Positions 15,942 through 61,967 of a DNA stretch of 64,000 nucleotides are shown here, piece after piece (within the stretch, counting starts at the first letter, position 1; each line of letters opens with the position of its first letter). Position numbers and translations under genes: made by a program. This DNA comes from a virus (lineage: Duplodnaviria > Caudoviricetes), in IMG/VR virus record IMGVR_UViG_3300005739_000025; one strand, written 5' to 3'. The notes beneath the pieces are model-generated. The model had not been told where the DNA came from. It saw only the letters and a program-made list of their open reading frames with translations, and made no database searches.

Positions 15942-18359
15942 ATGGCAAGAACAATTCAATCACCAGGTGTAGAGATTAGAGAAATAGATTTCTCAATTAG
16001 ACCAGTAACAACAGAAGGAACATTTGTATTTTTACCAGGTTTTGCAAACCAAGGACCTATAGACGAAGTTTTGCAACCAGGTAGCATTTCAGAGTTTGAA
16101 CAAGTTTACGGTGCACCAACAAATGCAGCAGAACAATATTTTTATCAAACAGCAAAAGCAATACTTGGTTCATCCCCTGCAAAATTACTTACAACACGTT
16201 TACCATATGGTTCGAAAAAAGGTGATGGTTTTACAACTTGGAGATATAGTGCATTAGTTTATCCTGCCAGCGGTTTTATTACATCAAACACATCAACATC
16301 AGCTGCTACCGCTTTAACAGATGCGAATGTATATTTGTTTGGTAAGCCAACACACCTTGAATTGAGTGCAGAACAATATCAATCTATACTTGATAATAAT
16401 ATAGATTGGCAAAATTCAGTTTCAAACACATTTTTATCAGGCATCGATTACGGTAGTATAGAAAATGCAGGTTTAATCATATTAAACAAAGCACAAACAA
16501 CCGTTAATAACACATTCGAAGGTTACTATGTTGGTATTATTGATAACAATAATTATAACCCAGCAACTCCCTTCAACGGCGCTCTTAGGGTAAATGCAAT
16601 ACAATCTTCAAATACAACTATTTACAACTATTTACAAGTTCCCGAAGCTAGATTAAATTTTGCCTTAAGTGCAACAAAAGCTGGTGATGGTTCAAGTATT
16701 TCTGAAGTATTGGAGAATCTAGGTCAAACTGACCTAAATTCAAGATCATTTGACGATACTTTATCATTTGGCTTGTTTAAGCTAAGAAAGAGCATCTACA
16801 CTCCAGATACAATTTCACTTGACTACGTATTGTCTGAAAGTTATATCGGCTCTCTTGACTATCATAGACAAGTTGCCGATCAAACCGGTGGTCCAGCCAA
16901 AACATTCTACCTTGGCGCCCTTGCGGATAATTCCTCTAATGTTGTAGTAAAGGTCAACCCTTATATTAGTAGTAGATTTACCAATACCTGGATTGGTAGC
17001 GGTGGAAACCCTACTAAAAAGGTTCGCTTTTTGAGTACACAACTTGCAACTCCATTAAACGATACTGGTTTTATTGATACCTCAGCAACTTACCTAACAA
17101 GAGTTGGTATGACAAGTGCTTCAGTAAGTGCAGCGCTTGACAAAATGGGGGGCACAGATGCAATATACGCTTTAGGGGTATATTCAAACACAGTTTCTAA
17201 CGATAAATCAATTGGTGGTCTACCATCAAAACTTGAAAGAGCTTTTGAATTGGTTGAGAACCCTGATATATATCCAATTAATCTAGCTGTTGAAGCAGGT
17301 TTAGGAACTGTTTATGTAAATTCAATTTACCAAACAGCATCAGCTCCATCGGATGTTGTTAATGATCAAACAGCTGGACCGTTCGTAGATTCAAAACCAC
17401 TTAACGCTTTAAGTGCTTTCTACGTAACAAACTCAGATGGTTTAGGTGATGAAGGTACAAATCTAAGAAGTTATTACAACGCGGTGGCAAATGTATTTGT
17501 TAATGCAGCTGAAAAGCAAAGAAAAGACTTCATGGTAATTCTTGATCCTATTAGAAACATTTTTGTTCAGGGTCAAAATTCAAAAGTAATTAATGCTAAG
17601 AAGACGTGGGGCCCAAATGCAGGTATTGATCCAGATCCATACGCTGCAGGTTATGTTACTACAAACTTCAGCCAACATGTTTACTGGCCATTAAGACATC
17701 AATTCTCTACAATTAATTCATCATATGCAACAACATATGGCCAATTTGCACAAGTAATTGATTCAACATCAAATAGACAAATGTGGGTTCCGTTCTCCGG
17801 ATTTGCAGCGGCCGCGATGGCTAACACAGATAGTTTATTTCAGCCATGGTTTGCACCAGCTGGCTTTACACGTGGTGTAATTACAAATGCTACTGATCTT
17901 GCTGTTTACCCGAAACAAAAACAACGCGATCAACTTTATAAAGTATCAATTAACCCAGTTGCGTTCTTCCCAGCAGAAGGTTTCGTAATCTTTGGTCAAA
18001 AGACCTTGCTCAAGAAACCATCAGCATTCGATAGAATTAACGTTCGTAGATTGTTCTTAAATCTCGAGGTACAAACTCGTGATACAGTTAAGTTCTTCGT
18101 ATTTGAGCCAAATACATTCTTTACAAGAACCCAAATTGTTAATACTCTATCACCTATATTTGATAGAGCTAAGAACACAGAAGGTTTATATGACTACTTG
18201 ATTGTCTGCGACGAAAGAAATAACACACCTGACGTTATTGACAACAATGAGTTAAAAGTTGATATTTATATTAAACCGGTTCGTACTGCAGAGTTTATCT
18301 TAGTATCCTTCTACGCGACACGTACAGGACAAGATTTTCAGGAGCTAATTGGTTTATAA
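15942..18359 (+). CDS. gp18: Contractile tail sheath protein
   Basis: SPGVEIREID, PWFAPAGFTRG, INPV..F, FGQKTL..PSAFDRINVRRLF, IYIKPVRTAEFI. Confidence 0.96.
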   Translation: MARTIQSPGVEIREIDFSIRPVTTEGTFVFLPGFANQGPIDEVLQPGSISEFEQVYGAPTNAAEQYFYQTAKAILGSSPAKLLTTRLPYGSKKGDGFTTWRYSALVYPASGFITSNTSTSAATALTDANVYLFGKPTHLELSAEQYQSILDNNIDWQNSVSNTFLSGIDYGSIENAGLIILNKAQTTVNNTFEGYYVGIIDNNNYNPATPFNGALRVNAIQSSNTTIYNYLQVPEARLNFALSATKAGDGSSISEVLENLGQTDLNSRSFDDTLSFGLFKLRKSIYTPDTISLDYVLSESYIGSLDYHRQVADQTGGPAKTFYLGALADNSSNVVVKVNPYISSRFTNTWIGSGGNPTKKVRFLSTQLATPLNDTGFIDTSATYLTRVGMTSASVSAALDKMGGTDAIYALGVYSNTVSNDKSIGGLPSKLERAFELVENPDIYPINLAVEAGLGTVYVNSIYQTASAPSDVVNDQTAGPFVDSKPLNALSAFYVTNSDGLGDEGTNLRSYYNAVANVFVNAAEKQRKDFMVILDPIRNIFVQGQNSKVINAKKTWGPNAGIDPDPYAAGYVTTNFSQHVYWPLRHQFSTINSSYATTYGQFAQVIDSTSNRQMWVPFSGFAAAAMANTDSLFQPWFAPAGFTRGVITNATDLAVYPKQKQRDQLYKVSINPVAFFPAEGFVIFGQKTLLKKPSAFDRINVRRLFLNLEVQTRDTVKFFVFEPNTFFTRTQIVNTLSPIFDRAKNTEGLYDYLIVCDERNNTPDVIDNNELKVDIYIKPVRTAEFILVSFYATRTGQDFQELIGL

Positions 18360-29289: not shown

Positions 29290-31164
29290 ATGAGCGACAC
29301 AAACAAACAAAGACCATTTGACCAGGAGTTTCCGTTATCTTATAACGCGTATGCTGCTTTTGACGCGCAAAGCTTAAAGCTATTAATGCAGCAACGTCTT
29401 ACTGAAAACGGGGTTTTTACAGATCAAATTTTTGAAGGAAGCAATTTTAATAATTTACTTGATGTGGTGGCGTACAGTTATAATGTGTTGCTCTACTATT
29501 TAAATCAAACAAGTAATGAGAGTTTATTTTCAAATGTTACTCTTTATGAGAACATGAGCAAAATAGTAAAATTATTAAATTATAAACCAATTGGGCTACA
29601 TTCTTCTGTTTTGAGCTTTCAGGCAGAGGCAAATGAATTGTTAGAACCAGGGGTATATACAATTCCTAGGTTTTCTTACTTTACGGTAAATGATATTATT
29701 TACAGTGTTAATAACGACCTTACATTTGTCAAAAGTTCAACAGGGGTTGAAACATTAAACGAACTTAGTGATTTTTCCTTACTTTATCAAGGGGAATTTA
29801 TTGAATATCCAATTTATGTTTCAACAGGTGAAAACTTTGAAGAAGTAAATATAGTATCCGTAGATTCAGATGGTAATAACGAGCCTATAGATCACAGCAA
29901 CTTTTACGTATTTGTTAGAAATGAAACAGGTAAATGGAGAGAGTGGAAGAGAGTAGAATCTCTCTATTTACAAAACGGTAGTAATGAGTGTTTTGAGGTT
30001 AGATTGAACGAAAATCAAAGATATACAGTAAAGTTCGGTAACAGCGTTACAGGTAAAAAATTAATTGCAGGTAATTTAGTAGCAATTTATTATTTAAGAT
30101 CGGATAAAGACTCTGGGTTTATAGGACCCAATACACTAGATAATAATAAAATGTTCTTTTATTCTACAGAACAATATAACGCTATTGTAAATGATATTAG
30201 AGATGCTAAAACTAGATTAATAACTTTAGAAGAAGTTAGTAATATTAATTTTACAAACACAGAAGCTTCATCACCTTATTCTGATGTAGAAACAGTAGCT
30301 CAAATAAGACAAAATGCACCAAACACATTTAGACAACAAAATAGATTAGTTACTATAGAAGATTTTGAATCTTACATTCATACAAATTTTGGCAATATAT
30401 TAACAGATGTAAAAGTGGTAAATAACTGGGATTATTTAGACGAGCATATTAGATATTTGTATAATATAGGTTTAAAAGAACCGTCATTAGATAGTAGGGT
30501 ATTGTTAAATCAGGTAAGATTTGCTGATAGTTGTAATTTTAACAACATTTACATTTATGGTATACCTAAAAAATTAATTACTAATAATTTTACTTTTGAT
30601 AGAGGATTTTTAAGTGAAGGTATTAAAGACTATATATTAAACAAAATTAATGCCTTAAAAATGTCTACAACAGAAATAGTATTTCAAGACCCTGTTTTTT
30701 TTGCTGTAGGTTTTGGGGTTGCAACCCAAGAAGAAATTTTTAACAACAATTTGACTACAGATATAGTTAAACAAAGCAAACTAGTAGTAAGTAGATCCGC
30801 TTCTAGTAATTTAAGTATAAGCGAAATAAAAAATCAAATAAAACAAACAATACTGGATTACTTTTCATTTTCTAATACTAGACTTGGTCAAGAGATAGAC
30901 TTACAACTATTAACCCAACAGATTTACAATTTAGGGGGGGTTAAAAATATATTTACAACAAGAGATGGGGTGGTTACCCCGGGTTTAAATTTATTAGGAT
31001 TTAATCCAGTATATAATTTTAAAAATGAAGATATAGGTATAATAGCTCAAAATACTAAACTACCATTTTTTAAAATCCCATATTGGTATGATGTGTCAGG
31101 TTTAGATTCGCAGATAGAAGTAATATCTTCTGACTATTTAATAAACAGTAAAAGAGAGTATTAA
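29290..31164 (+). CDS. gp6: Baseplate wedge subunit gp6-like
   Basis: FTD..FEGSN...LLDVVAY, YTVKFGNSVTGKKL, IRQNAP..F..QNRLVTIEDFE. Confidence 0.92.
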   Translation: MSDTNKQRPFDQEFPLSYNAYAAFDAQSLKLLMQQRLTENGVFTDQIFEGSNFNNLLDVVAYSYNVLLYYLNQTSNESLFSNVTLYENMSKIVKLLNYKPIGLHSSVLSFQAEANELLEPGVYTIPRFSYFTVNDIIYSVNNDLTFVKSSTGVETLNELSDFSLLYQGEFIEYPIYVSTGENFEEVNIVSVDSDGNNEPIDHSNFYVFVRNETGKWREWKRVESLYLQNGSNECFEVRLNENQRYTVKFGNSVTGKKLIAGNLVAIYYLRSDKDSGFIGPNTLDNNKMFFYSTEQYNAIVNDIRDAKTRLITLEEVSNINFTNTEASSPYSDVETVAQIRQNAPNTFRQQNRLVTIEDFESYIHTNFGNILTDVKVVNNWDYLDEHIRYLYNIGLKEPSLDSRVLLNQVRFADSCNFNNIYIYGIPKKLITNNFTFDRGFLSEGIKDYILNKINALKMSTTEIVFQDPVFFAVGFGVATQEEIFNNNLTTDIVKQSKLVVSRSASSNLSISEIKNQIKQTILDYFSFSNTRLGQEIDLQLLTQQIYNLGGVKNIFTTRDGVVTPGLNLLGFNPVYNFKNEDIGIIAQNTKLPFFKIPYWYDVSGLDSQIEVISSDYLINSKREY

Positions 31165-39141: not shown

Positions 39142-40404
39142 ATGGCAGCAGGTATTAAAATTTCTCAATTAGCAGGCGGTGGTAGTGCGCTTGAAGGTGA
39201 TACAATACCTATTGCAAGAGGTGGCAATACCTTTAAACTTACTGTAGGTGATATAGCAGGTTCTTTAACCGCAGCAAGCAACTCAATAAAGGGTAATCCT
39301 ACAGCAGCTACTGCAAAAGCTATAGATATTTCTTTAGCTAATCATAGTATATTAGCAAGAACAGGTAGTAATATAGAAAATATTTTAGCTAACCCTAATA
39401 CTGTACTTTGCAGATTAGAGTCTGACTCAACTTTAGCTTTTAGATCATTTACAGGAGATTTAATTCAAAATAATACAATTTCAAACGCAAAGCTTTCGCA
39501 AATGGCTGCTTATACCATAAAGCTTAATAACACGGGAAATACCGCAAACGCATCAGATTTTGCTATAGCAGATAATTCCGTTTTAGTAAGAAGTGGTAAT
39601 TTTACTAGTTTGGTTGCAAACAACAACACGATATTAAGAAGACTTGGTGGTACCTCTACCTTAGAGTTTGGTCAGGTTACAACAGATTTAATAGTTAATG
39701 GTGCTATTAATTCAGATAAATTGGCAGCGGGCTCGGTAACAAATAATGCTATAACTGACAATACAATTTCCGGTAATAAACTTGTAGCAAACTCAGTTAA
39801 TTTAGATAGAATACAGCAAATAGCTGGACAAACAGTCTTGGGTAATGTTGGTACTGGATTAGGCAATACTGCTGCGGTAAAAGTTACACCAAATCTACTT
39901 TCAACCGGTGCTCCTAGTTGGGACGCTGACGGGAATGTAACTGCTAACGGGAATGTAACAGTTGTTAAAAATTTACAAATAGGTAGCGGTTCTTTTGCTA
40001 CAACTATTAATTCTTCATCAATTACAAGTATAGTAACAAGAAGAATAGAGTGTGATAGAATTAACGTTGATAGGCCTGTAGAAACAAAAGTAGTAGTGCC
40101 GATTGTAAATAATGCTATTGAAATTGATTTAAATAGAGGCACCGTTTTTGTGGTGGAAAATAAAAATGTTAATATTGATTCTATAACTACCACTAACAAT
40201 CAATCTATTGATGAAGTGGTTAGCTTTATACTACAAATTGTTAGTGGAGGTAATACAGTAATTTCATGGCCAGCATCTTTTAAATGGACAAATGGATTTT
40301 CACCTTTTCTGTCGCCAACTGCAGGCAAAACTGATACATTTGGATTTTTTTCTTACAATAGTGGTAATACATGGTGGGCTTTTACATTAGGTTTAAATGC
40401 ATAA
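39142..40404 (+). CDS. Tail fibre protein 1
   Basis: KISQL anchor, short beta-helix-like repeats (NGAINSDKLAAGSVTNNAI), C-terminal fibre cap IDLNRG...WPASFKW..G..P.LS.TAGKTD. Confidence 0.7.
   Translation: MAAGIKISQLAGGGSALEGDTIPIARGGNTFKLTVGDIAGSLTAASNSIKGNPTAATAKAIDISLANHSILARTGSNIENILANPNTVLCRLESDSTLAFRSFTGDLIQNNTISNAKLSQMAAYTIKLNNTGNTANASDFAIADNSVLVRSGNFTSLVANNNTILRRLGGTSTLEFGQVTTDLIVNGAINSDKLAAGSVTNNAITDNTISGNKLVANSVNLDRIQQIAGQTVLGNVGTGLGNTAAVKVTPNLLSTGAPSWDADGNVTANGNVTVVKNLQIGSGSFATTINSSSITSIVTRRIECDRINVDRPVETKVVVPIVNNAIEIDLNRGTVFVVENKNVNIDSITTTNNQSIDEVVSFILQIVSGGNTVISWPASFKWTNGFSPFLSPTAGKTDTFGFFSYNSGNTWWAFTLGLNA
39151..39905 (+). repeat. Direct repeat copy 1 (~755 bp, fibre N-terminal module)
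   Basis: Aligns without apparent gaps to 41869-42623 (offset 2718). Confidence 0.9.
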
Positions 40405-43982: not shown

Positions 43983-45968
43983 ATGCTTTTCAACCAAGAA
44001 AAGGCTCTTGTAGCGTGGAACAATGATAATCTAGATACATATCATGACGTAATTGTAAGTTTTGATTATGCTAGATTTTCTAGAAGAAATATACCTTCTG
44101 GTGGTTTTTGTGTTGTTTTCTTCTCATCTAAACAAGATGTTCCTACTATTGGCGGGCCAGGGGCAAGCTTAGGTTATTTGCCTAGTAGTCAGAGTGATTA
44201 TTGTTTTAATAGAGGGTATGAAGGTTTTGTAGGAGCAACATTAGGTGTTGGGTTTGATTTAAATGGTGAGTTTGGATTAAAAAATAATTTAGTAGATGGA
44301 TTAGATACACCCATTACAAATTCATGTAGTATAAGAGGCTCAGAAACAGAAAATTACAAATATTATACTACTAGTAAGAATTTTGCTTCCACCCCTAAAC
44401 GCATATCAATAGCAGACACTTTAGATTCAGACGATCCGATTCAATATAAATCTGTAAGAATAATAATAAGCAAAGCCTTTTCAAATATAGAGGTACAAAT
44501 AAAAAATAGAGAAGATACAGAGTTTTATACTGTTTTAAATCAAAGAATACCTGTTAAGAGAAGAACTGCTGTAAGAATAGGCATAACTCATACATCTACT
44601 GATTCTTACACCAGATTTGTTCTAAAAAATTTTAATGTAGCGGGTTTCCCCGGGGTAGTAGCGGATCCAGAGTTAGATGACTGCGCAACTATTAATACAG
44701 TAAATAATATACAAGGCAATACAATTGTATCTGCTAATGACTTTTGTGCTGTGCCCGTGAATGGTAATGTTCATGTTTATGAAGTTAGAGGGGGTAGTTT
44801 TTCACTTAAACAACTTATTCAAGAAGAGAGTGACGCGTATTTATTAGGGGGCAATGAGCGATTTTTATTTTTAAATAAAACTAACACATATGAGGTAGAT
44901 GTTTATTATAAAGCTAGCAATAATTTTTTAAAAATACAAACAATAGACTTGTATGGAGATGTAAGTTTTGATATAGGTGAGGATTTAATCGGTGGGTATC
45001 CTACATGTGCAGATACAAATAGTAGATTTTTAGTGGTAGGCAATAATAAAAATGTTTTTGTGTGGCAATTTTTTACAGGGGTTGGTACGTTTGGAGTTTT
45101 CGGATATACACAAACTTTATCTTATGATATTTCTGGGGGAATAGGATACTCAGTACAAATTGATGGTACTAAAATGCTTACAGGTGGGGGCAAGCCAAGA
45201 TTGACAGGTAGAATTAACAGCTTTGTTAATGCATACGAATACAATGGAATTATTTGGGACGATGAACCAAAACAAACAATTATATCACCTATTACCGGTA
45301 ATATATATGATGAATTTGGAACATCAATAAGCATGCAAGGCAACGAGGCTATTATAGGATCCCCCAATGAAAGAAGAAGAAATAGAGAAACGTTAGGCCA
45401 TGGTGAAGCATATCACTACGTGTATGTTACTAACAGACAGAGAGGAAGAAAAGAATGGAGAAGCGCTATGGGTTTAGGTACTTTCTTTAATATAGACACT
45501 CCTGGTGGTAACCTAGGTACATCTGTAAATTTTTTAGGAAATTATTTGCTTGTTTCTGCTCCTTATGAAAATTATCATTTCCCACCAGATAAAGTTTTTG
45601 AAGATAAACCTAACGCGGGTAGAGTTTATTTGTTTAGAAAGAGTTCTGTAGGCACATTTACCCAGTCTGCAATATTGGCGCCTGATCCATTTAGAGTTAA
45701 AGAAAATATGTACTTTGGAAGATATGTAGGATTTTTAGGTAGAGTTGCTGCGGTGGTAGGAGTACCGTATAAAAATAATTTATTGGTTGCAGCTGAACTA
45801 GACGTTTACAAGATAGGTTGTATATTTGATCTACCACCTAGACATTTGCCCATAAGTATAGATTCTATAGCCCTTTATGATTCTAGTGGTTATACTATAG
45901 ATATTTCTAGTTTCACATACTTACAATTATTGGAAAAACAATTTAATACGGGGAATAATTTACAATGA
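43983..45968 (+). CDS. Virion adhesin: L-type lectin-like domain + FG-GAP beta-propeller
   Basis: GFCVVF..GASLGY..GVGFD (lectin); FGTSISM...IGSP, LGTSV..LLVSAP, NAGRVYLF, FGRYV (FG-GAP); TAAATA 43970-43975. Confidence 0.7.
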   Translation: MLFNQEKALVAWNNDNLDTYHDVIVSFDYARFSRRNIPSGGFCVVFFSSKQDVPTIGGPGASLGYLPSSQSDYCFNRGYEGFVGATLGVGFDLNGEFGLKNNLVDGLDTPITNSCSIRGSETENYKYYTTSKNFASTPKRISIADTLDSDDPIQYKSVRIIISKAFSNIEVQIKNREDTEFYTVLNQRIPVKRRTAVRIGITHTSTDSYTRFVLKNFNVAGFPGVVADPELDDCATINTVNNIQGNTIVSANDFCAVPVNGNVHVYEVRGGSFSLKQLIQEESDAYLLGGNERFLFLNKTNTYEVDVYYKASNNFLKIQTIDLYGDVSFDIGEDLIGGYPTCADTNSRFLVVGNNKNVFVWQFFTGVGTFGVFGYTQTLSYDISGGIGYSVQIDGTKMLTGGGKPRLTGRINSFVNAYEYNGIIWDDEPKQTIISPITGNIYDEFGTSISMQGNEAIIGSPNERRRNRETLGHGEAYHYVYVTNRQRGRKEWRSAMGLGTFFNIDTPGGNLGTSVNFLGNYLLVSAPYENYHFPPDKVFEDKPNAGRVYLFRKSSVGTFTQSAILAPDPFRVKENMYFGRYVGFLGRVAAVVGVPYKNNLLVAAELDVYKIGCIFDLPPRHLPISIDSIALYDSSGYTIDISSFTYLQLLEKQFNTGNNLQ

Positions 45969-47654: not shown

Positions 47655-50600
47655 ATGTATTCAAAATATATTTTATCTAGTAATTGGAAAAGTTTGTCCA
47701 GCGAATATGCTTTTGATAAGGATTTAAACTTTAATAACGTTTCAATTTATATTGACGGTAATATTGATTTAAATTTTGCTCCTACTTTGTCAGGTTTAAG
47801 TGATTACAATAACAATAACTATTCTTTATTTTTTTTAACTAAAAATACTAATGTTAATAATTTTATTACAAAAGAATATCCTATATTAGATATTAATAAA
47901 CAAACAGTTTTGTTGGCTACTGATTTTAGAAATAATCTAGTTTCTGATATAACGTTGTTTTTAAAATTAGAAAATGACAATTTATCTTTTGTTAAAATTA
48001 CGGAATTAAATAACGATAACTTTTTTGAAATTGATTATGTAACTGCAAATGAGCTTTACGTCTATACAGTAAAAAAAGGAATTTTTTATTATATTTGTGT
48101 AGATGATATAACAACTTCTATATCAGTATTATCATCAGATAATCCAAACAATCTTACAAATTTTCAAAAAAATAAAATTAGACTTAACTATCTATTTGAC
48201 AAAAAAAGAAAGAGCATAGTACTCTATAAAGTAATACAAAATGATACATATGTATTAACAAAAGACCCATTAAACGTATTCGTTTTATTAAAAATCCAAT
48301 TAAATGATGTAATTGAACAAAATTTTTTAAATTTGGTAAAAATTAACGAGTTGCCTCCTTCCAGTTTATTAGTGAATTGGGTGTCTTATTTAGACGATGT
48401 TAATAAAAATTCTAATACAATAAATAGCTCCAGATCACTCTATAATATATCAAATAATTATTTAATTCATAGTGAGTACAACACTATAAGAAATAACTTT
48501 ATACAACACAATATAATAACCCTTAAAAATCAATCTGATGTTGATGGTCAATTTTTAAGAAATAATATTAACAATAATTTTAGAGAATATAGAACTATAT
48601 TAGGGGGTGGAAATCGCGAAGAAGGCTATAACAATATTTCATTAGGCTATACCTCAAAGTACTACCCTTTAAAAATTTACAGCGATAAAACTACGTGGTT
48701 TCATATACCATACAACAAAGAAATAATTTCAACAAATATAAACAATTCAAATTTTAAAATAAACGGTGCTATACCAGGCACAGCTCCAATTTACAGCGAT
48801 AAAATTTTTAAAAAAGCAGCAAATTATGCATTTAACTCTAACATGGGAAATTCTGAAGATGATGAACAGTCTGGTACTTGGCTTTGTGCCTGGTTAAGCG
48901 GTGGACCTCTAAATTCTGTTTGGGTTGATCGTTATTACAATCCTGATACGTTTACAGCTTTTGCAGCCGCTAAATATTCTACCAATGTTTCTTATACACC
49001 AAAATATCTAGGAAAGTATAAAGCTGGTATTACAGACGTAGTAAGTAACCTAACATTAGAACCTGGAGTTTGGTACGCATATAGTAGAATTGGTAAAAAA
49101 ACTGCTAATAATATAATAAACGGTTTAAATGGTAGCTTAATATCAAAAGGCTTTTCATTATATCAAACAAAAAATAAATCAAATATATTACAAAACACTG
49201 ATACTGAAGGCGAAGCTTCTTACAATTTTAATAAAAATACCTTTGCTTCTACTTCTATAGAAAAACTTACAAGTTTTAACAACTTTACTATATCGTTTTT
49301 TGGTGCTAGAGAAAACTGGGATAATTACGATACCTTTCAAATGTTAGGCAATTATCTTGATAGTGGTTTTGGAGTGTTTAATGATTTATCTATTAACCCT
49401 AATTTGTATTATGTTAATGGTAAAATATTATATATATTAAATAAGAATTATAAAAATATACTCACCATAGATACAAACTACTATTTAAATGTTAGTGGGT
49501 ATAATATAAAAGGTTTTTTTAGAAGAGATTTAAACAGTAACGTTCACGTTATAACAGACAACAATTATTTATTGGAATTTAATGCGAACGGGACTATTGT
49601 AGATTTAAGCAATTTATCAAACGTTTTAAGCGGTAATATTACTTCTGTAACAAATAATAATATAAACGGCTATATATACACAGATCAAAGAAGGGTTTAT
49701 CAGATAAATTTATTTTCCAATTTTGTTAAAGATATCACTAATGATTTAAGAGTAAAGACTGGTATAAACTTTAATTATCAAAACAGTAATACAAATTTTA
49801 ATATAGTAACCGATGTTTACGACAATGTATATATAATAAATGGTATATATCCCATTTTAAAAGGAACAAACATATATTTTAAATCTCCTGATTCTTTATT
49901 TTTACAAGTTTACGATATAAACGAAAATTCGATAAATATCTTTTTATCTGGTTCAAATAGTGAAAAAATAATGTCGTATAATTTTGACAATAGTGGATTT
50001 ACTTATTTATTATACAAAAATAGAATATCTGAATATGACGCATTAGGTAATTACATTAAGGACTTGTATATAAATGTAAAAAATCGAAGCTTGTCAGGTC
50101 TTAATTTTATAGTACAGAATATAGGTGGTAATAGTCACCTATCCGTACATGTTATTGATAGGTTTGATAGAAATCTAATGTATAATGTCTCTTTGAGTTC
50201 AGTAACATTAGTTGATGAAAACTATAACAATGTTTTTAATTTGAGTGGCGCAGATTTGCAAGATAAAATTTATGACATTTCCAATTACAATTATAATCAA
50301 GGTATTATTACAAGTAACTCTCCAATAGCTAGTTACAAGTTTATATTAAAATTGTTTAATCAACTAAACTATGAAGACGCTAGAATCCTAACCCATAACG
50401 TATTAGGCGAATATTTAAATACTGGTGAGCATCATTTTGCAATAACTTTAAATACCATAAAAGGCGAATACAATTTATATATTGATGGTAAATTATTCAG
50501 TAAAAAGACTTTCACACCTAAAAAATATAGTTTCACAAAATTACTAACAGACACTATTTTAGCTGGCGCTACACCTTTTTATGGAGGTGTTTTATATAGT

Positions 50601-51029
50601 GATTATTATAACGTAGATAAAGACTTTTTATTTGTAAATGACTTTAAAATAGATAAGTTTAAAATTTATGATGAAGAATTAACCGCAGAAGAAATTAGAC
50701 TGTTATATTTTCAAAAATACCCCCCTAAAGATGTTAGTATTAGTATTCCTATAGGAGAAAGAAATTATTTAGATACTATTACAAGAACATTTAGACATAA
50801 AATGCAGGGTAGTAAATCTAATTTAATCAATTTATTTATTAATGATAGTTTAATAACTGATAAATCAATACAAAAAATATATGAGTTGAAGATCTTAGAC
50901 GAGATTAAAAGGGTGTTACCAAGTTATATAAAAATTAACTCAATCACGTGGTTAAATAATAAAGAAGGTGACGAAAAAATGATAGAGGGCAACTTTAATG
51001 TAAGAAACACTGTAACAGACACACTATAA
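47655..51029 (+). CDS. Large virion structural protein with split LamG-like elements and propeller region
   Basis: FTISFF, HHFAITL..GEYNLYIDG, IDKFKIYDEELTAEEI; TAAATA 47642-47647. Confidence 0.6.
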   Translation: MYSKYILSSNWKSLSSEYAFDKDLNFNNVSIYIDGNIDLNFAPTLSGLSDYNNNNYSLFFLTKNTNVNNFITKEYPILDINKQTVLLATDFRNNLVSDITLFLKLENDNLSFVKITELNNDNFFEIDYVTANELYVYTVKKGIFYYICVDDITTSISVLSSDNPNNLTNFQKNKIRLNYLFDKKRKSIVLYKVIQNDTYVLTKDPLNVFVLLKIQLNDVIEQNFLNLVKINELPPSSLLVNWVSYLDDVNKNSNTINSSRSLYNISNNYLIHSEYNTIRNNFIQHNIITLKNQSDVDGQFLRNNINNNFREYRTILGGGNREEGYNNISLGYTSKYYPLKIYSDKTTWFHIPYNKEIISTNINNSNFKINGAIPGTAPIYSDKIFKKAANYAFNSNMGNSEDDEQSGTWLCAWLSGGPLNSVWVDRYYNPDTFTAFAAAKYSTNVSYTPKYLGKYKAGITDVVSNLTLEPGVWYAYSRIGKKTANNIINGLNGSLISKGFSLYQTKNKSNILQNTDTEGEASYNFNKNTFASTSIEKLTSFNNFTISFFGARENWDNYDTFQMLGNYLDSGFGVFNDLSINPNLYYVNGKILYILNKNYKNILTIDTNYYLNVSGYNIKGFFRRDLNSNVHVITDNNYLLEFNANGTIVDLSNLSNVLSGNITSVTNNNINGYIYTDQRRVYQINLFSNFVKDITNDLRVKTGINFNYQNSNTNFNIVTDVYDNVYIINGIYPILKGTNIYFKSPDSLFLQVYDINENSINIFLSGSNSEKIMSYNFDNSGFTYLLYKNRISEYDALGNYIKDLYINVKNRSLSGLNFIVQNIGGNSHLSVHVIDRFDRNLMYNVSLSSVTLVDENYNNVFNLSGADLQDKIYDISNYNYNQGIITSNSPIASYKFILKLFNQLNYEDARILTHNVLGEYLNTGEHHFAITLNTIKGEYNLYIDGKLFSKKTFTPKKYSFTKLLTDTILAGATPFYGGVLYSDYYNVDKDFLFVNDFKIDKFKIYDEELTAEEIRLLYFQKYPPKDVSISIPIGERNYLDTITRTFRHKMQGSKSNLINLFINDSLITDKSIQKIYELKILDEIKRVLPSYIKINSITWLNNKEGDEKMIEGNFNVRNTVTDTL

Positions 51030-52810: not shown

Positions 52811-53608
52811 ATGGCAGGTAGCTTTACATTTCATAGTAAATTTCATAGAGCAAATCACCACTCTCTATCATCTTTCGATATAGTAGATTCTGGATTTGAT
52901 CCTATAGCATCTAGAAAATTTCCTTTTTTAGGTATATTTTACAATAAGCTTACCGACGAAAAAAGAACATTTGATATAAACACTAACAGTTATGATTGGT
53001 GGTCTGGGTTTACAACTATGTTTACCTATTCTGCCATATGGATGCCAACACTGTCACTTTATACCACGGTAAAAACTTTAAGTGATAATTGGAACTTAGG
53101 TTACTCTGGATATACTACATTAAAAGCTAATAGTGGTAGATATGAGAGTACTTATACCACTGTATGTTCTTATAGTGCCGAGTGGGGATCACCCTACTTA
53201 ATGTTTACAAACAAAGTTCAAGAGTACACCCACGCTAAAACATTTTCAGGTCAAGAATTGTTTCCTAATACAGAAATACCAGGATTATCTGTGTATGACT
53301 GGGACTTAGATAAACAACAAGTAGCGTTTATAAAAATTAAAAATGATATACAGATAAAAGCTCCGGTAGAAGGTACTATGATAACCGGTGGTCTTTATAC
53401 TTTGGTTATTTATCAAAACAATGAAGACGTACAAAATGTAGGATATACTGTAGATTTTGAGCCTGTTTATAGATTTAACGAAAGATTTACTGGGGAGGAA
53501 GAAACAATAAATGTAAATAAGTCGCTTTCGGGCATTACAATGTATAACTTTTTGGCTGTAGGCGATTACATGTATGGGGATGTGACATTCCTTAGCGGTA
53601 ATTATTAA
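52811..53608 (+). CDS. Fibre-associated protein, short paralog of the next gene's N-terminus
   Basis: FHSKFHRANHH...DPIAS..FPFLG; WNLGYSGYTTL; GGLYTLVI; TAAATA 52799-52804. Confidence 0.65.
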   Translation: MAGSFTFHSKFHRANHHSLSSFDIVDSGFDPIASRKFPFLGIFYNKLTDEKRTFDINTNSYDWWSGFTTMFTYSAIWMPTLSLYTTVKTLSDNWNLGYSGYTTLKANSGRYESTYTTVCSYSAEWGSPYLMFTNKVQEYTHAKTFSGQELFPNTEIPGLSVYDWDLDKQQVAFIKIKNDIQIKAPVEGTMITGGLYTLVIYQNNEDVQNVGYTVDFEPVYRFNERFTGEEETINVNKSLSGITMYNFLAVGDYMYGDVTFLSGNY

Positions 53609-53610
53609 AA

Positions 53611-56600
53611 ATGTCAAACGCAATTTTTCATAATAAATGGCACTCGTTTAACCACTATACATTACCTCTTGAAGGTTACCCTGATAGTGCTACAGATCCT
53701 ATTGCTTCTAAAGAATACCCTTTTAGAGGTACCTTTTTTAATGTTATATCTGGCGACTATGGATTTACAACCACAGGGTTAACTATAACTGACTTTGGTT
53801 CTGGGTTCACCACTACTCCCAGTGTTTCATTGCGTACATTAAACGAAGGCGATGTTATTTTTCAACCGGAATTTAATATAGGTGTTGATGTTGTTACAAG
53901 AAAGCTATCTTCATTTACAATAAAATACGGGGGAATAACAAAATCTTATGGTAGTTTAGTTTTTACCCCCAAAAATGGAGATGTAATAAGAATAAGACCG
54001 GAAATATTTTTAGAATTCTCTTCTATAAGTGCTATTTCTAATAGTTCAGGTTGGGAATTTTATACTTCTCTTACAAGAAATAATTCTGCAGACTGGGGTA
54101 AATATTTTATTGTAAGAGATACAACTATTAGTTTATCTAGTATATGGGATTTAGGGTTTGTGGGTTATACTCACTTAAGAGCTACTTCTGGTAAGTATAC
54201 TTCTGTTTATACACAAACTTCTTCTTTGTCACCCGCTGGTGTATATAATTTTTTTGGTAGAGAGCCTGTTGACAATTTTAATTTAGTTGGTGGCACGGGT
54301 TGGCATATAGCCCTATCTAGTGCAACCCATAGAACAAATATCGGTTATCAAGTAGATAGTAGACAAAAAGTTGCCGTACCTGTAAGAGTGTTTGAAAATA
54401 ATTTAAGAAATATCGTTTGGGACTTATCGGCTCAGACAGTATATCACAATTTAACTAGCAGTAATAGTCTAACGGCCCGTGGACTTATTAACCCTAAAAA
54501 AGGTGGTAAGTATACTATGTGGATTTATGTTGATAGTTGCCCTGTTGAAACGACTAATTTTGTATTTGATAAAAGAGATTATAACATACAATTAAAACAG
54601 CTTGACGGTACTACCCGTTTTACTAATAATATATTAGCTTTAACTGCTAACTTTGTTACTCGAGTAGATTGTGTTTATGACGGTAATAAGATGTTGTGTA
54701 AAGCTACAAGATATAGAATTTTTAAGGCAACAGACGATGATTTATATTTTCAAGGCACAGGTATAAGATTTGTAGATCCAAGAAGCTTTGCTAATAAATC
54801 ACCTGTATACGTAAATCCTACTAAAGAAAATGTTTTTGGTCCAGGCTCTCCTTCTGATCCAATAATAGGAGGAGGGGGTATTAATATTCTTTCAGCTTCT
54901 AACGAATTTACAGAAACATCATCTTTTTATATACCTGGAACGGGGTTAAATTTTAAATTTTTAAATAGTGATTTTAGATATTTTAGTTATAACTTAATTA
55001 ATGCTGAATGGCCTTCAAAAACAGATTTGACATTTAATAAAGAATTGACAGGTTCATTTGATAGAGTTATAGGAACTCTATCAGCTGGAGACTGGACATT
55101 GCCTCAATTTGCAATCAACTTGATAGCTTCTCCTAATGAAAACGCAGTTACAGATAATATATTATTAAGTGCTTATCCAACTTCTGCTTATGGAGGTCCA
55201 TGGGAGCTTGCAACTTCAAATATAAGATCAGTTGTAACCTGCACTAGCTCTTACATAATAGAAATTTATTCAGGTAGAGATAGAGATATTTCTTCTATGT
55301 TTATAAATGATATCCGCGTATTTCCTGAACCCAAATTTTTAAGTGGTATGTATCAACCATTTAATTATAGAAACGAAAGAACGGCTAGAATTAAATTTGA
55401 AAGAATACAACAGGATTATTCTATTGATGTAATTTATGGTCCTCAGGCACCTTTAACAGTCAATGGCGGTGTGCTTTGGTTTAATTCAATGAATGATTTT
55501 ACTATTAATAGAACTGCGACAAATACTTTAACTACTTGGAATAATAATACTAGATATTCTAATTTGCCAAGAGTAGGGGAAAACTCAGCATTTGTAGGTT
55601 TTGCTGCCTCTACCAGTACAGCTGGTAGAGATAACCACTGGATACATAATTTTAATTGGTCTAGTAGTCTAAATGAGTTGCCTTTTCAAAAGTTTTTGGG
55701 TAAATCCACTTTACAAAATGCAACTTTATCTTCTACATATGCAAGTTTAACCAGTATTAGATTAACACCAAATCTTACTAATAGAAGAGGTGCAATATTT
55801 TATAATGTGCCTGTTTATTTTACTGACAGCAAAGGACTACCAATTAGTTGGTCCTGTAATTTCACCTTCTCCATAGGTGGCGGTATTACACGCGGAGAAG
55901 GTTTATCGTTTATAATACAGGGTGTATCAAAAAATACTATTGGTGGTATTGCAAACGGTATGGGATATAGTGGTATACCTAACAGTTTATCTATAAGCTT
56001 TGATACTTTAGCTAATGGCTCATATGATCCTGATGACAACCATATAGAATTAAACATTAACGGTGACGTTACAAATCCAAATGGAGATTTACCTATTAAT
56101 AATAACATAAACGGGGTAGATATAGAGCTACGTGGAACTAATGGAGTTAGTGACTTAAGGTATTGTTGGATTGATTATGATGCAAGCAACTCTACAATGT
56201 TTGTATACTTAACTAGTGTAAATATAAAACCTTTTTCACCTGTATTGCAATACGCTGGTAGTATAGTAGATATTATAAAAAATAATGATAACCCAGAAAC
56301 TGTTTTTAAACTAGAAAGTAGAAATGTTTCAACAGCTCCAGCTCTTTCAACAAATAGAAGTTTAAGAGGTTTAGTATTAAGCGCTGATAAGTTTTTAGAA
56401 TCAAATTATGATATAACACCCCTAAGTTCTAACTCATCCTTTTTTAATAGCTTTACTACATTTACTGTTTTTGAAACCCCACAAACATTTCCTCTAAGCT
56501 CTGTTATATGGTGGATTGGAGATTATAGTTATGATAGAGTAACAAAAGGTTACGGTTTAATATTGTCTGGTAGACAGTTATACACAATAGGTAATTTTAA

Positions 56601-56949
56601 TGATAGATATACTTCTTTTACAAATTTACTATCAACAGATTCAACATATTTGTCGGCAAATAAAAAGTACGTAGTAGTAACTAGATTTAACGCCAAAAAC
56701 CCTTCTAGACAAATTATATATGTCAATAATAGAACATCTCAGTATATTAATACTTTTAGAGGAAATACTGTTACTATTCCTTCAAGCTCGTATTTTTTAA
56801 CTGTTGGTAAAAATCCGGCAGAAAATGGTGGGTTTTCAAATGTTAGGTTGTATGAATATTATCTTTATGATAGATATCTCGACTTATCTGAGGTAAGAAA
56901 AATAAGTAACTTCTTAATTACGAAGTACGATGATTATAAAATTGGATAA
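53611..56949 (+). CDS. Large fibre/adhesin with permuted L-type lectin inserted in a C-terminal LamG domain
   Basis: FHNKWHSFNH..DPIAS; lectin motifs RLTP..GAIFY, GEGLSF, SISFDT..N..DPDDNH, WIDYD; LamG LYEYYLYDRYL. Confidence 0.75.
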   Translation: MSNAIFHNKWHSFNHYTLPLEGYPDSATDPIASKEYPFRGTFFNVISGDYGFTTTGLTITDFGSGFTTTPSVSLRTLNEGDVIFQPEFNIGVDVVTRKLSSFTIKYGGITKSYGSLVFTPKNGDVIRIRPEIFLEFSSISAISNSSGWEFYTSLTRNNSADWGKYFIVRDTTISLSSIWDLGFVGYTHLRATSGKYTSVYTQTSSLSPAGVYNFFGREPVDNFNLVGGTGWHIALSSATHRTNIGYQVDSRQKVAVPVRVFENNLRNIVWDLSAQTVYHNLTSSNSLTARGLINPKKGGKYTMWIYVDSCPVETTNFVFDKRDYNIQLKQLDGTTRFTNNILALTANFVTRVDCVYDGNKMLCKATRYRIFKATDDDLYFQGTGIRFVDPRSFANKSPVYVNPTKENVFGPGSPSDPIIGGGGINILSASNEFTETSSFYIPGTGLNFKFLNSDFRYFSYNLINAEWPSKTDLTFNKELTGSFDRVIGTLSAGDWTLPQFAINLIASPNENAVTDNILLSAYPTSAYGGPWELATSNIRSVVTCTSSYIIEIYSGRDRDISSMFINDIRVFPEPKFLSGMYQPFNYRNERTARIKFERIQQDYSIDVIYGPQAPLTVNGGVLWFNSMNDFTINRTATNTLTTWNNNTRYSNLPRVGENSAFVGFAASTSTAGRDNHWIHNFNWSSSLNELPFQKFLGKSTLQNATLSSTYASLTSIRLTPNLTNRRGAIFYNVPVYFTDSKGLPISWSCNFTFSIGGGITRGEGLSFIIQGVSKNTIGGIANGMGYSGIPNSLSISFDTLANGSYDPDDNHIELNINGDVTNPNGDLPINNNINGVDIELRGTNGVSDLRYCWIDYDASNSTMFVYLTSVNIKPFSPVLQYAGSIVDIIKNNDNPETVFKLESRNVSTAPALSTNRSLRGLVLSADKFLESNYDITPLSSNSSFFNSFTTFTVFETPQTFPLSSVIWWIGDYSYDRVTKGYGLILSGRQLYTIGNFNDRYTSFTNLLSTDSTYLSANKKYVVVTRFNAKNPSRQIIYVNNRTSQYINTFRGNTVTIPSSSYFLTVGKNPAENGGFSNVRLYEYYLYDRYLDLSEVRKISNFLITKYDDYKIG

Positions 56950-57972: not shown

Positions 57973-58155
57973 ATGGTTCATATTGAACGGGATTCAAAAT
58001 TCAAAAATTTTGAAAATCAAGTAACTGATCAATTATTAGACATTATAAAAACTATAGAGCCAGAAAAAAAAGAAGTATCAAGTTCTCTTTCAGTTAATTT
58101 TGTATCAATTGAGGACGCTGCAAAAGAGCTTCTACAAATGGGTGTAAAAGCATGA
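57973..58155 (+). CDS. Hypothetical protein
   Basis: 60 aa; TAATTA-ATTTT-ATG (late-like); ATGA overlap with gp4. Confidence 0.55.
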   Translation: MVHIERDSKFKNFENQVTDQLLDIIKTIEPEKKEVSSSLSVNFVSIEDAAKELLQMGVKA

Positions 58156-58628
58156 AGCTACAAACTAAAAATCCTAGATTTAAGCAAGGAATTTATGTTC
58201 CTCAAAATAAACAAAAATATAAGGGAAGAGATTATCCCAGATATTTGTCATCTTGGGAATTAAAATTGTTTAGATTTTGTGATTGTAATAAAGATGTTTT
58301 AGAGTGGGGGTCAGAAAGTATAGTCATACCTTACATAAACCCTATAGATAATAAAGTACATAATTATATTGTTGATGCAATTATAAAATTGAGAACTAAT
58401 GAGGGTATAAAAAAATTTTTAGTAGAGGTTAAACCCTATAAGCAAACTATTAAACCGGTTAATAGATTGACCAAAACTAATAAGGTACCTAAGTCCCTTT
58501 TATATGAACAGCTCAGTTATATCAAAAATACAGCTAAGTGGAATGCAGCAAGAGAGTGGTGTAAAAAGAGAGATATGGAGTTTACTATTTTAACAGAACA
58601 CCAGTTAAATATAAGAAAATACATATAA
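58152..58628 (+). CDS. gp4: Head completion nuclease, T4 gp4-like
   Basis: NKQKYKG, YLSSWE..F.FCD.N.DVLEWGSE..IPY, Y.VD, VEVKP, N.AKW.AA.EWC, F.ILTE. Confidence 0.92.
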   Translation: MKLQTKNPRFKQGIYVPQNKQKYKGRDYPRYLSSWELKLFRFCDCNKDVLEWGSESIVIPYINPIDNKVHNYIVDAIIKLRTNEGIKKFLVEVKPYKQTIKPVNRLTKTNKVPKSLLYEQLSYIKNTAKWNAAREWCKKRDMEFTILTEHQLNIRKYI

Positions 58629-58645: not shown

Positions 58646-59320
58646 ATGGCATTAAAACTTTTAGTTGAACAACCTGCTCCGGAAGAAGAATACCAGTATG
58701 TAGTTGAGGAGCAAAATAATAACAAACCAGCTAATTTATACATTACAGGACCTTACATGCAATGTGAGACTGTAAACAAGAATAAAAGAATTTATAGTGA
58801 AGGTGAAATGGATAGAGAGATTAACCGTTATATCTCTGAAATGGTTAAAACAAAAAGAGCTATGGGTGAGTTAAACCATCCCACAAAAGCCGAAGTTGAT
58901 TTAGAGAGAGCATGTCACTTAGTAGTTGATTTGAGAAAAGAAGGTAACACCTATTACGGCAAATCAAAAGTCTTGTCTACACCAACAGGTTTAATTGTTA
59001 AGTCATTAATCAATGATGGTGTTAAAGTCGGTATGTCTTCTAGAGCGTTAGGAAAGCTATCTGAGCAATCAAATGGTATTAATCGTGTCTCAGAATTTAG
59101 ATTAGTTGCTGTTGATTGTGTTGCTGATCCTTCTTGTCCATCAGCATTTGTAAATGGTATTTTAGAGTCAAAACAATTCGTTTTAAGGGAAGATGGTAGA
59201 CTAGAAGAACACTATGACAGATTTAGTGAGTCACTTTCTTCATTACCTAAAAAAGATGTTGAGGCATTTTTAAAGGAACAAATTTTAAGCTTTATATCAA
59301 AAATAAGCAGAGTGCTATAA
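58646..59320 (+). CDS. gp21: Prohead protease
   Basis: YITGPYMQ..NKNKRIY, GELNHP, GVKVGMSSRALG, AVDCVADPS.PSAFV.GILE. Confidence 0.96.
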   Translation: MALKLLVEQPAPEEEYQYVVEEQNNNKPANLYITGPYMQCETVNKNKRIYSEGEMDREINRYISEMVKTKRAMGELNHPTKAEVDLERACHLVVDLRKEGNTYYGKSKVLSTPTGLIVKSLINDGVKVGMSSRALGKLSEQSNGINRVSEFRLVAVDCVADPSCPSAFVNGILESKQFVLREDGRLEEHYDRFSESLSSLPKKDVEAFLKEQILSFISKISRVL

Positions 59321-60458: not shown

Positions 60459-61967
60459 ATGAAAGTTAGACCTACTGAATCATATATTGATGAATCACGC
60501 GCAAAAATGCTCGTCGAAAAATGGGCTCCAGTTCTTGACTACAGTTCAGACACTGTAAAGCCTATCGAAGATGACCATCGTCGTTTAAGCACAGCAATGC
60601 TTCTTGAGAACCAAGAGCAATGGTGCATTAACGAAGCTAACGTTGCTGGTGGCACAGGTTCCGTCTTTGGCGGTGCTTATGCTGGTGCTGGTGGCGCAGG
60701 CTACAACGGTGGCGCATTCGGCAATTCCACACCTGCTGGTGACTGGTATGCTAGTGGCGATGCTCGTTTGCCAAAGATTCTCATACCAATGATTCGCCGT
60801 ACCTTCCCTGAGTTAATTACTAACGAAATCGTAGGCGTTCAACCAATGGGTGGCCCAGTTGGTTTAGCATTCGCTCTCCGTTACAAGTATCTTGCCGACG
60901 CACTCGGTTATGATGCTGCTGGTACCGGTTTAGACGCATCGCTAAATTCAAATCTCGGCAACCCACAAGCCGCTGCTGGTGGTAAAGAGTTAGGTTATCA
61001 ATACTTAAATACAGCATTCACTGGAACTTCTTCCAGTGCATTGTCTGGTTTAGGTGCAAATGATGATCCTTCAAACCCATTCCCATTCATCGGCTCTGAC
61101 GCTGGCGTAGCTCAAGTTCTTAAGAACTTCGAGTTAACTTCCAAGATTCCACAAATCGAAGTTTCCTTCGAGAAAACAGCTGTTGAAGCTGGTACAAGAA
61201 GATTGGCAGCGCGCTGGTCAGTTGAGTTAGAGCAAGACCTTAAGAACATGAACGGTATCGACATCGACACCGAGTTGACAAACGCAATGAGCTATGAGCT
61301 CCAAGCTGAAATCGACCGTGAGATGATCATCCGCATGATCCAAGTCGCTCTTAACGCTGGTTACGGTGTTGGTTATTCTGTCTGGTCCCCAGCCTCAGCT
61401 GATGGACGTTGGTTAGTCGAGAGAAATCGCGACTTCTATCAACGTTTAATCATCGAAGCTAATCGTATTGCTATCCGCAACCGTCGTGGCGCTGCAAACT
61501 TTGTTGTTTGTACACCACGTGTTGCCGCAATCCTCGAAATGCTTCCTGAGTTCCAATGGGTACCTGTACAAGGTAACGTAAACACACAACCAGTTGGCGT
61601 CGCAAAAGTTGGTAACCTCGGTGGAAGATTCAATGTTTACCGCGACACTCGCACAGAGGCTCAATACGAAATGGGCAGAAGCTCATACGTTCCAGGTAAC
61701 CCTTCGGCACGTAACCGTCGTATCGAGTACGCATTGTTAGGCTATAAAGGTCCTGAGTATTACGATACCGGTATCATTTATTGTCCTTACATCCCTGTGA
61801 TGGTTCAACGCACCATTGGTCCTAACGACTTCTCACCACGTGTTGGTTTACTAACACGTTACGGAGTTGTTGACAACATCTTTGGCGCTGCTCTTTACTA
61901 TCACGTAATCCTCTTGAGTGGTCTCGGCGAAGCATTCACCCCGGCTAATCAATCGGTATACTTCTAA
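60459..61967 (+). CDS. gp23: Major capsid protein, T4 gp23-like
   Basis: EKWAPVLD, LLENQE, LIPMIRR.FP.LI..EIVGVQPMGGPVGLAFALR, R.LAARWSVELEQDLKNMNGID, YCPYIP, RYG. Confidence 0.98.
   Translation: MKVRPTESYIDESRAKMLVEKWAPVLDYSSDTVKPIEDDHRRLSTAMLLENQEQWCINEANVAGGTGSVFGGAYAGAGGAGYNGGAFGNSTPAGDWYASGDARLPKILIPMIRRTFPELITNEIVGVQPMGGPVGLAFALRYKYLADALGYDAAGTGLDASLNSNLGNPQAAAGGKELGYQYLNTAFTGTSSSALSGLGANDDPSNPFPFIGSDAGVAQVLKNFELTSKIPQIEVSFEKTAVEAGTRRLAARWSVELEQDLKNMNGIDIDTELTNAMSYELQAEIDREMIIRMIQVALNAGYGVGYSVWSPASADGRWLVERNRDFYQRLIIEANRIAIRNRRGAANFVVCTPRVAAILEMLPEFQWVPVQGNVNTQPVGVAKVGNLGGRFNVYRDTRTEAQYEMGRSSYVPGNPSARNRRIEYALLGYKGPEYYDTGIIYCPYIPVMVQRTIGPNDFSPRVGLLTRYGVVDNIFGAALYYHVILLSGLGEAFTPANQSVYF

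Follow-up and report, generated by a model that had tools for sequence, protein, structure and literature searches.

Background

Concanavalin A (ConA), a member of the legume lectin family, is the protein in which circular permutation was first recognised. We describe here a lectin of this family that is permuted in the gene itself and that lies in a 64,000-nucleotide stretch of DNA (the window) from the virus record IMGVR_UViG_3300005739_000025 (Caudoviricetes) of IMG/VR, where one open reading frame (ORF), P0001 (53611..56949, plus strand, as are all parts of it described below; 1112 amino acids (aa) and a stop codon), encodes a predicted fibre-like virion protein whose terminal jelly-roll domain is interrupted by the lectin.

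In ConA the permutation is post-translational, the N-terminal half becoming the C-terminal half, and the lectins of the Diocleinae are permuted by asparaginyl endopeptidase (doi 10.1101/2020.10.28.360099). The ConA permutation goes back to Cunningham 1979 and Carrington 1985, both as cited in PMC2395249, which also cites Tsai 2003 for a gene-encoded permutation within the ConA-like superfamily, that of the Fibrobacter succinogenes glucanase, and a duplication/deletion model of circular permutation. Multidomain proteins often contain inserted domains (PMC13114784). In the open-access papers searched, neither a gene-encoded permuted L-type lectin nor an L-type lectin in a phage fibre was found described, and the family of permuted lectin modules presented below is so far undescribed.

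Compared to the legume lectins (PF00139/PF18483; 7ELV from Methanocaldococcus jannaschii and the pea lectins 2BQP/5T7P), the phage lectin belongs to the same sequence family, forms the same sandwich in its model and largely keeps the Asp, Asn, Asp and His of the Ca2+/sugar site, but the last ~40 residues are encoded first, with Glu in place of the loop-A Asp and Ser in place of the Mn-ligand Glu. It also resides in a phage fibre-like protein, whereas the known legume-type lectins are found in plant, bacterial or archaeal proteins. ConA, a member of the same domain family, has its canonical C-terminal strand joined directly to the N-terminal strand, as in the phage module, indicating that the native termini are adjacent and that such a join is tolerated. 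The new ends of ConA are near mid-domain, however, while the phage module ends ~40 residues before the canonical C-terminus, and ConA is permuted after translation from a normal-order gene, while the phage order is present in the ORF itself and in 26 other clusters. This is consistent with an initial annotation of this DNA, made from the sequence without database searches, which had set ConA apart as permuted post-translationally and at a different site, in agreement with the published account (doi 10.1101/2020.10.28.360099) and with the cut in the phage module at about position 207 of the 250 in the Pfam model. The Fibrobacter succinogenes glucanase shares with the phage module both the jelly-roll superfamily and a permutation encoded in the gene, but it is a GH16 enzyme, neither an L-type lectin nor a phage module, and it is not nested in another domain. 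The interrupted host domain, in turn, has the same fold and the same D.Y.Y.R.L-type C-terminal motif as the Laminin_G_3/ConA-like domains of phage and bacterial adhesins (PF13385), from which it differs in being broken in one loop by 251 aa.

Results

The 251-aa insertion (aa 648-898, 55552..56304), which is lacking in ten orthologue clusters, consists of the permuted L-type lectin module and short linkers. The two strands that are canonically C-terminal (VGF...H.I..W, with the specificity loop D) come first, at aa 653-690 (55567..55680), as located with a hidden Markov model (HMM) of this C-piece and with hhalign, and the canonical N-terminal and central part follows at aa 692-891 (55684..56283), as located with Pfam and VIA-align, ending at the strand that canonically stands before VGFSA. 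In a canonical member VGFSA...SWSF is last, while in P0001 these C-terminal strands precede the N-terminal part. Aa 648-898 are, therefore, a permuted variant and not a canonical member of the L-type lectin family.

Several profile comparisons detected the two pieces out of order. Pfam Lectin_legB (PF00139) matched aa 692-889 with model positions 6-207 of 250 (E 2.9e-21; 76.6 bits against a cut-off of 26.3), and PF18483 scored 47.4 bits, under its cut-off of 78.3. A Pfam scan limited to aa 640-900 reported two stretches; a scan of aa 610-700, containing the C-piece alone, gave no match, which was probably lost to the HMMER filters. The C-piece HMM matched aa 653-690 with an E of 2e-18. A normal-order HMM, built from 36 normal-order lectin domains, matched twice, with HMM positions 181-220 at aa ~652-691 (i-E 8.8e-4) and HMM positions 19-187 at aa ~710-891 (i-E 3.8e-45). 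The same pattern was obtained when a profile of the permuted family, an alignment of 23 modules (the query and 22 others, end to end), was compared by hhalign with the normal-order profile: columns 46-232 aligned to 3-188 (E 2.8e-51), and a second, non-overlapping alignment placed columns 10-48 on 185-223 of 228 (probability 94%, E 1.2e-07, 41% identity). Within the displaced piece, G663 and F664 are invariant in the permuted family, and its T and H are each present in 20 of the 23 members.

The initial annotation had predicted two out-of-order partial lectin matches, and these were seen by Pfam, by the normal-order HMM and by the profile-profile alignment; all the motifs it quoted were found in the stated order in the translation of 53611-56949, where position 55465 corresponds to aa 619. 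Its central claim, that an L-type lectin is circularly permuted at the level of the gene, is now supported by sequence, profile, model and comparative evidence.

Elsewhere in the window, the ORF at 43983-45968 (661 aa) had been named as a lectin in normal order, a claim that was not confirmed. Pfam found only an FG-GAP_2 repeat (E 2.6e-10), the lectin HMMs gave no match and hhalign aligned 25 columns with a probability of 1.2%. Lectin-like motifs are visible, by eye only, in its N-terminal ~230 aa (GGF.VVFF, GG.G.SLGY, LGVGFD, VRIGITHTS...F.LKNFNV), which could be a very divergent ConA-like domain. No further copy of the permuted lectin was detected in the 64-kb window or in the 148.8-kb virus record.

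AlphaFold2, supplied with the 23-module alignment, modelled aa 648-898 as one domain with a predicted local distance difference test score (pLDDT) of 87.2 and a predicted template modelling score (pTM) of 0.88, and the displaced strands (insert residues 11-40) reached a pLDDT of 91-97. The predicted model superposes as a jelly roll on solved legume lectins. Among the matches listed, VIA-align placed model residues 39-244 on residues ~2-205 of legume lectins and of 7ELV (Z 16.4-19.1; root-mean-square deviation (rmsd) 2.1-2.9 A; 161-184 residues aligned) and left the first 38 residues of the model and the last ~30 of the lectins unaligned. Since a sequential aligner must leave the ends of a permutant unaligned, this is the signature expected of a permutation. 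The best target-normalised Foldseek scores were those of the pea, lentil and Lathyrus beta chains, which consist of the N-part alone without the C-terminal strands, as fits a permuted insert. A shape search of the ESM Atlas returned only normal-order lectins, spanning model residues ~38-244 with template modelling (TM) scores of 0.63-0.69, and did not find a large cluster with the permuted topology; a fold search of BFVD with the lectin model returned nothing at E <= 0.001. The AlphaFold check that the initial annotation had proposed thus gave a single confident domain, and the VGF strand was not found to belong to the LamG sheet or to a domain of its own, as the module also occurs without a LamG host and folds alone.

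To place the module in a wider context, 1.84 billion cluster representatives were searched exhaustively with HMMER, and the best 150 of the 1882 matches were classified by separate C-piece and N-piece HMMs; the counts of permuted and normal-order clusters given here and below refer to these 150. The C-piece directly preceded the N-piece in 27 clusters including the query, 36 clusters were single normal-order domains, and 47 were fully alternating tandem arrays, all in normal register. Several short 'proteins' of the permuted class are contig-end fragments. In the full-length permuted members P0003 (629 aa), P0156 (1754 aa) and P0157 (2054 aa), the module is the last domain, with the stop codon within a few residues after it, and in P0156 the Lectin_legB match (model 18-207) lies at residues 1573-1751. 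The region upstream of the VGF strands in P0003 is PKD-like and not a lectin, indicating that the leading strands cannot be the end of a lectin further upstream. The genomic contexts of permuted members resemble phage structural regions, with gp25-type baseplate, PKD and LamG proteins. Among the related loci in IMG/VR, 13 of 16 were permuted, while a scan of prokaryotes with two peptide patterns (one genome per species, 185,579 species) yielded 52 loci, none of them permuted.

In a tree built from the N-part, 24 of the 26 permuted rows cluster together, the query among them, and the permuted label requires 2 changes compared to 23.4 in shuffles. Forcing all 26 permuted rows into one clade gave +75.8 lnL (log-likelihood) and an approximately unbiased p value (p-AU) of 0.983, so that a single origin of the permuted order is not rejected by the sequence data. 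The closest relatives of the permuted modules include tandem arrays in normal order whose C-to-N spacers are short. These results support the permuted order as an inherited trait of a module family that is found mainly on phage contigs and is normally a terminal domain. The initial annotation had proposed that a permutation at the DNA level and a domain insertion together created the arrangement in P0001; the insertion did take place here, but the permutation did not arise at this locus, having been inherited from the pre-existing module family.

Other arrangements of the module were also observed. P0051 (409 aa) has the order C-N-N, with ~165 aa interrupting the N-part of the permuted module, possibly a further nested insertion; P0105 (619 aa) is a tandem of permuted units, C-N-C-N; and P0085 (348 aa) has the order C-N-C. 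The permuted lectin is internal, and not terminal as usual, in the IMG/VR loci L010:1525-4089, L014:736-4149 and L015:1525-3984, with Cys-rich stretches and long poly-Thr linkers behind it in L010 and L014.

The domain that holds the lectin is split into two segments of P0001. The first strands of this ConA-like/LamG_3-like jelly roll lie at aa 600-647 (55408..55551; host-domain HMM positions 1-58), and the rest of the domain together with a C-terminal helix lies at aa 899-1112 (56305..56946; host HMM 44-266, E 3e-71). Orthologues are 40-56% identical to the query over aa 1-~650 and 30-48% identical over aa ~894-1110, and the two blocks abut in the ten orthologue clusters that lack the insert (e.g. 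P0002 556/560, P0005 648/644, P0159 664/662). When an HMM of the uninterrupted domain of the orthologues is aligned with the query, the match breaks at aa ~654 and ~887. Because the flanking segments are contiguous in syntenic orthologues, the 251 aa represent an insertion in a loop of the jelly roll. Among the top 150 of the 1.84 billion representatives searched, the architecture host-C-N-host was found in the query only. In P0006, P0007 and P0059 the same loop of the LamG-like domain holds a different insert of ~180 aa without a Pfam match (P0006:558-738, P0007:562-742, P0059:554-737). The loop, empty in most orthologues and filled by this other insert in three, is therefore likely a permissive plug-in site, and seems to be an insertion hot spot.

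A model of the insert-less domain (P0002:505-782, computed with 11 orthologues; pLDDT 76.7, pTM 0.80) shows a ConA-like jelly roll with a C-terminal helix, and the insertion point maps to its loop 50-56, between the strands at 44-49 and 57-59. This model of the orthologue P0002 matched ConA-like jelly rolls with Z 13-18, as expected for the ConA-like fold. The cyanopodophage Pan3 tailspike (9VYH) was a neighbour at Z 18.2 but with an rmsd of 6.3 A; the others included a GH54 arabinofuranosidase, AbnA domain 4, the trans-sialidase lectin domain, the PilC lectin module, the jelly-roll subdomain of the clostridial toxin binding region, CBM40, pentraxins and the lectin domains of ERGIC-53 and VIP36. 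Judged from the predicted model, these matches speak for a common fold only. By profile, the host domain matched the CBM40 of NanA in the Protein Data Bank weakly (E 0.14), and 4 of the 11 orthologue domains had a sub-threshold match to Laminin_G_3 (PF13385; best E 3.7e-05). The proposal in the initial annotation that the lectin sits inside a LamG domain stands as an insertion in a ConA-like/LamG-type domain, LamG being meant at the level of fold or superfamily; the query itself has no match at the Pfam threshold.

The insertion junctions read AATAATAATA upstream and AATAATGATA at the end of the insert, and the resemblance of the two was judged insignificant in DNA of 31% GC. GC content is 0.34-0.36 inside the insert and 0.29-0.31 in the flanks, which gives no clear signal.

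The remainder of P0001 is a conserved body (aa 1-599, 53611..55407), delimited by orthologue identity and including an N-terminal motif of ~45 aa. P0001 has no family in PHROGs and NCBIfam, and aa 1-599 have none in Pfam either; a feature search of the ESM Atlas with aa 1-600 gave scores of 0.75, which serve as leads only. Searches of the gene and protein against 50,697 GenBank phage records (blastn, tblastn) gave no matches. The P0001 protein is also encoded on a 244-kb contig, and full-length orthologues of 778-1042 aa are present in related phage contigs. A second indel of ~98 aa (53743-54036, P0001 aa 45-142) is present in the query, P0005, P0016, P0004 and P0159, and missing from P0002, P0006, P0007, P0059 and P0073.

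The gene lies within the structural gene block of a T4-like myovirus. The window (GC ~31%) encodes a terminase large subunit (13570-15318), a tail sheath (15942-18359), a baseplate wedge (29290-31164), fibre-like genes (39142-40404), a prohead protease of family S77 (58646-59320) and a Gp23 major capsid protein (60459-61967) that is only ~33% identical to cyanomyophage capsid proteins. The IMG/VR record of 148.8 kb has a CheckV completeness of ~70%, and its source is an uncultured, distantly T4-like large marine myovirus. A gp13-like gene is immediately downstream of P0001, and between it and the protease gene comes one with a TnsA-like endonuclease N-terminal domain (58152-58628; PF08722, E 3.6e-19). 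The syntenic orthologue P0159, on a related 110-kb contig, likewise has gp13-like, TnsA-like, S77 protease and Gp23 genes downstream. The TnsA-like gene occupies the equivalent place on the related 110-kb phage contig (L003:13896-14327), indicating that it is conserved and not a recent mobile insertion.

P0001 is thus located in the virion structural module and has a modular C-terminal domain that varies among orthologues, as would be expected of a fibre or receptor-binding protein; this gene context suggests a fibre-like protein that would be present in the virion and may act in adsorption. Two neighbouring proteins have the N-terminal motif of P0001 (53611-53760), of the type HNKWH..NH...DSA.DPIAS: the 265-aa product of the upstream ORF at 52811-53608 (phmmer E 6e-11) and, in the related phage, a 1121-aa protein (L003:6606-9971) that adjoins the orthologue (51% over 43 aa). 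The motif looks, by sequence, like a common N-terminal anchor for several neighbouring fibre-like proteins. The 1124-aa product of the ORF at 47655-51029 has a sub-threshold Laminin_G_3 match (aa 922-1014, E 3.9e-05) and no similarity to the P0001 host-domain HMM, suggesting that the block encodes two LamG-like fibre proteins unrelated to each other.

Discussion

Taken together, we consider it probable that the terminal jelly roll of P0001 holds, in one of its loops, a complete L-type lectin (aa 648-898) that is permuted at the DNA level and was acquired as an inherited phage module. In this arrangement, the canonical last two strands (of the VGFSAxTG...H.ILSWSF type) come first and run, nearly without a linker, into the canonical N-terminal strand, and the chain ends at the strand that normally precedes VGFSA. 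The likeliest route to such a module would be the off-register excision of a unit from a tandem lectin array, since normal-order tandem arrays are the intermediates expected under the duplication/deletion model. With the cut in a hairpin, the ends of the module should sit close together, so that it could drop into a surface loop of another domain; one copy was later inserted into the jelly-roll loop of P0001. The inserted lectin would then serve as an added or alternative receptor-binding head, diversifying host recognition. The broader proposition, that the permuted L-type lectin arose once from tandem arrays and circulates as a plug-in receptor-binding module that was captured by the loop of a LamG-like tip, is more tentative, and we regard it as possible but somewhat short of an even chance.

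Several observations weigh against this interpretation. That the VGF strands lie in the lectin sheet and that the module ends are close together is predicted from pLDDT and pTM, from the aligned ranges and from the logic of the family. The host-domain model is that of the orthologue P0002, 42-46% identical, and its pLDDT of 76.7 is only moderate; the other four host-domain models scored 52-57. A Pfam scan of the query itself gave no match to Laminin_G_3 (PF13385). The permuted clusters P0082 and P0132 fall outside the main clade in the free tree, and the absence of the permuted module from bacteria is provisional, given the two peptide patterns of the scan. Finally, when the canonical legume lectin sites were mapped via alignments onto the 23-member family alignment, two positions in the query departed from the canonical residue. 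The sugar-binding Asp of loop A, common to the legume lectins and 22 of the 23 members, is Glu763 in the query alone, and the Mn-ligand Glu, a variable position that is Glu in 4 of 23 members, is replaced by Ser796.

With these two replacements the query lectin could bind differently or not at all, and the explanation that survives best besides our own is that the architecture is as described but that the inserted lectin no longer binds carbohydrate, acting instead as a spacer, in a protein-protein contact or as a binder of something other than a glycan. L-type lectin folds with roles other than sugar binding exist. The rest of the site is nevertheless kept: Asp798 (Mn/Ca; Asp in 23/23 members), Asn802 (Ca/sugar; Asn in 22/23), Asp806 (Ca/Mn; Asp in 18/23), His811 (Mn; His in 18/23) and the loop-B glycines Gly783 and Gly785 (Gly in 20/23 each), together with loop D, which lies in the displaced piece, so that this piece is needed for a complete binding site. 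The change of Asp to Glu is conservative, and the module family is located distally in fibre-like proteins, as receptor-binding domains would be. Loss of carbohydrate binding, therefore, appears unlikely, though it deserves more weight than the alternatives that follow. We slightly favour a role at the distal end in which the lectin recognises a glycan of the host surface in a Ca2+-dependent manner, in addition to any ligand of the LamG-like domain, and a two-headed glycan-binding tip, as the initial annotation had put it, is plausible.

A second explanation holds that there is no true permuted fold, the VGF...W piece being a dead remnant of an upstream lectin repeat in a decayed array and the downstream lectin being truncated. 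The closest non-permuted relatives are indeed tandem arrays, where a short spacer separates each C-piece from the N-piece after it, and the sequential structure aligners left residues 1-38 unaligned. The displaced piece is, however, among the best-conserved parts of the family, with its G and F invariant and its T and H kept in nearly all members, and it has the highest pLDDT in the high-pTM (0.88) single-domain model. The C+N unit is found, always with the same boundaries, in 27 clusters and 13 viral loci, in proteins that stop right after the N-piece, and a lectin sandwich deprived of two core strands and loop D is not expected to fold. We consider a decayed remnant very improbable. More improbable still is that the orthologues lost an ancestral 251-aa segment and that no insertion event took place: the direction is indeed drawn by parsimony from comparative presence and absence, but ten orthologue clusters are without the segment and three carry an unrelated insert, host-C-N-host occurs in the query only among the representatives searched, the relatives of the module are terminal domains of unrelated proteins, and the host domain without the insert is a complete jelly roll.

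Conclusions

The legume lectin family, permuted post-translationally in ConA, is here permuted in the gene at a different site. The existence of a clade of permuted members alongside normal-order arrays, which are plausible intermediates, would make this a clean natural case of the origin of a permutation and of its modular spread. As domain models report only a truncated Lectin_legB match, the permuted family is likely to be systematically mis-described in annotation. The finding adds an L-type lectin module to the known repertoire of phage fibre tips and indicates that a specific loop of a LamG-like tip tolerates the insertion of whole domains, which bears on how receptor specificity diversifies, also in laboratory phages. 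If the broader proposition of a circulating plug-in module is true, P0001 would represent a scaffold, made by nature, in which inserted domains switch host-glycan specificities or add new ones, in a tip with two binding sites.

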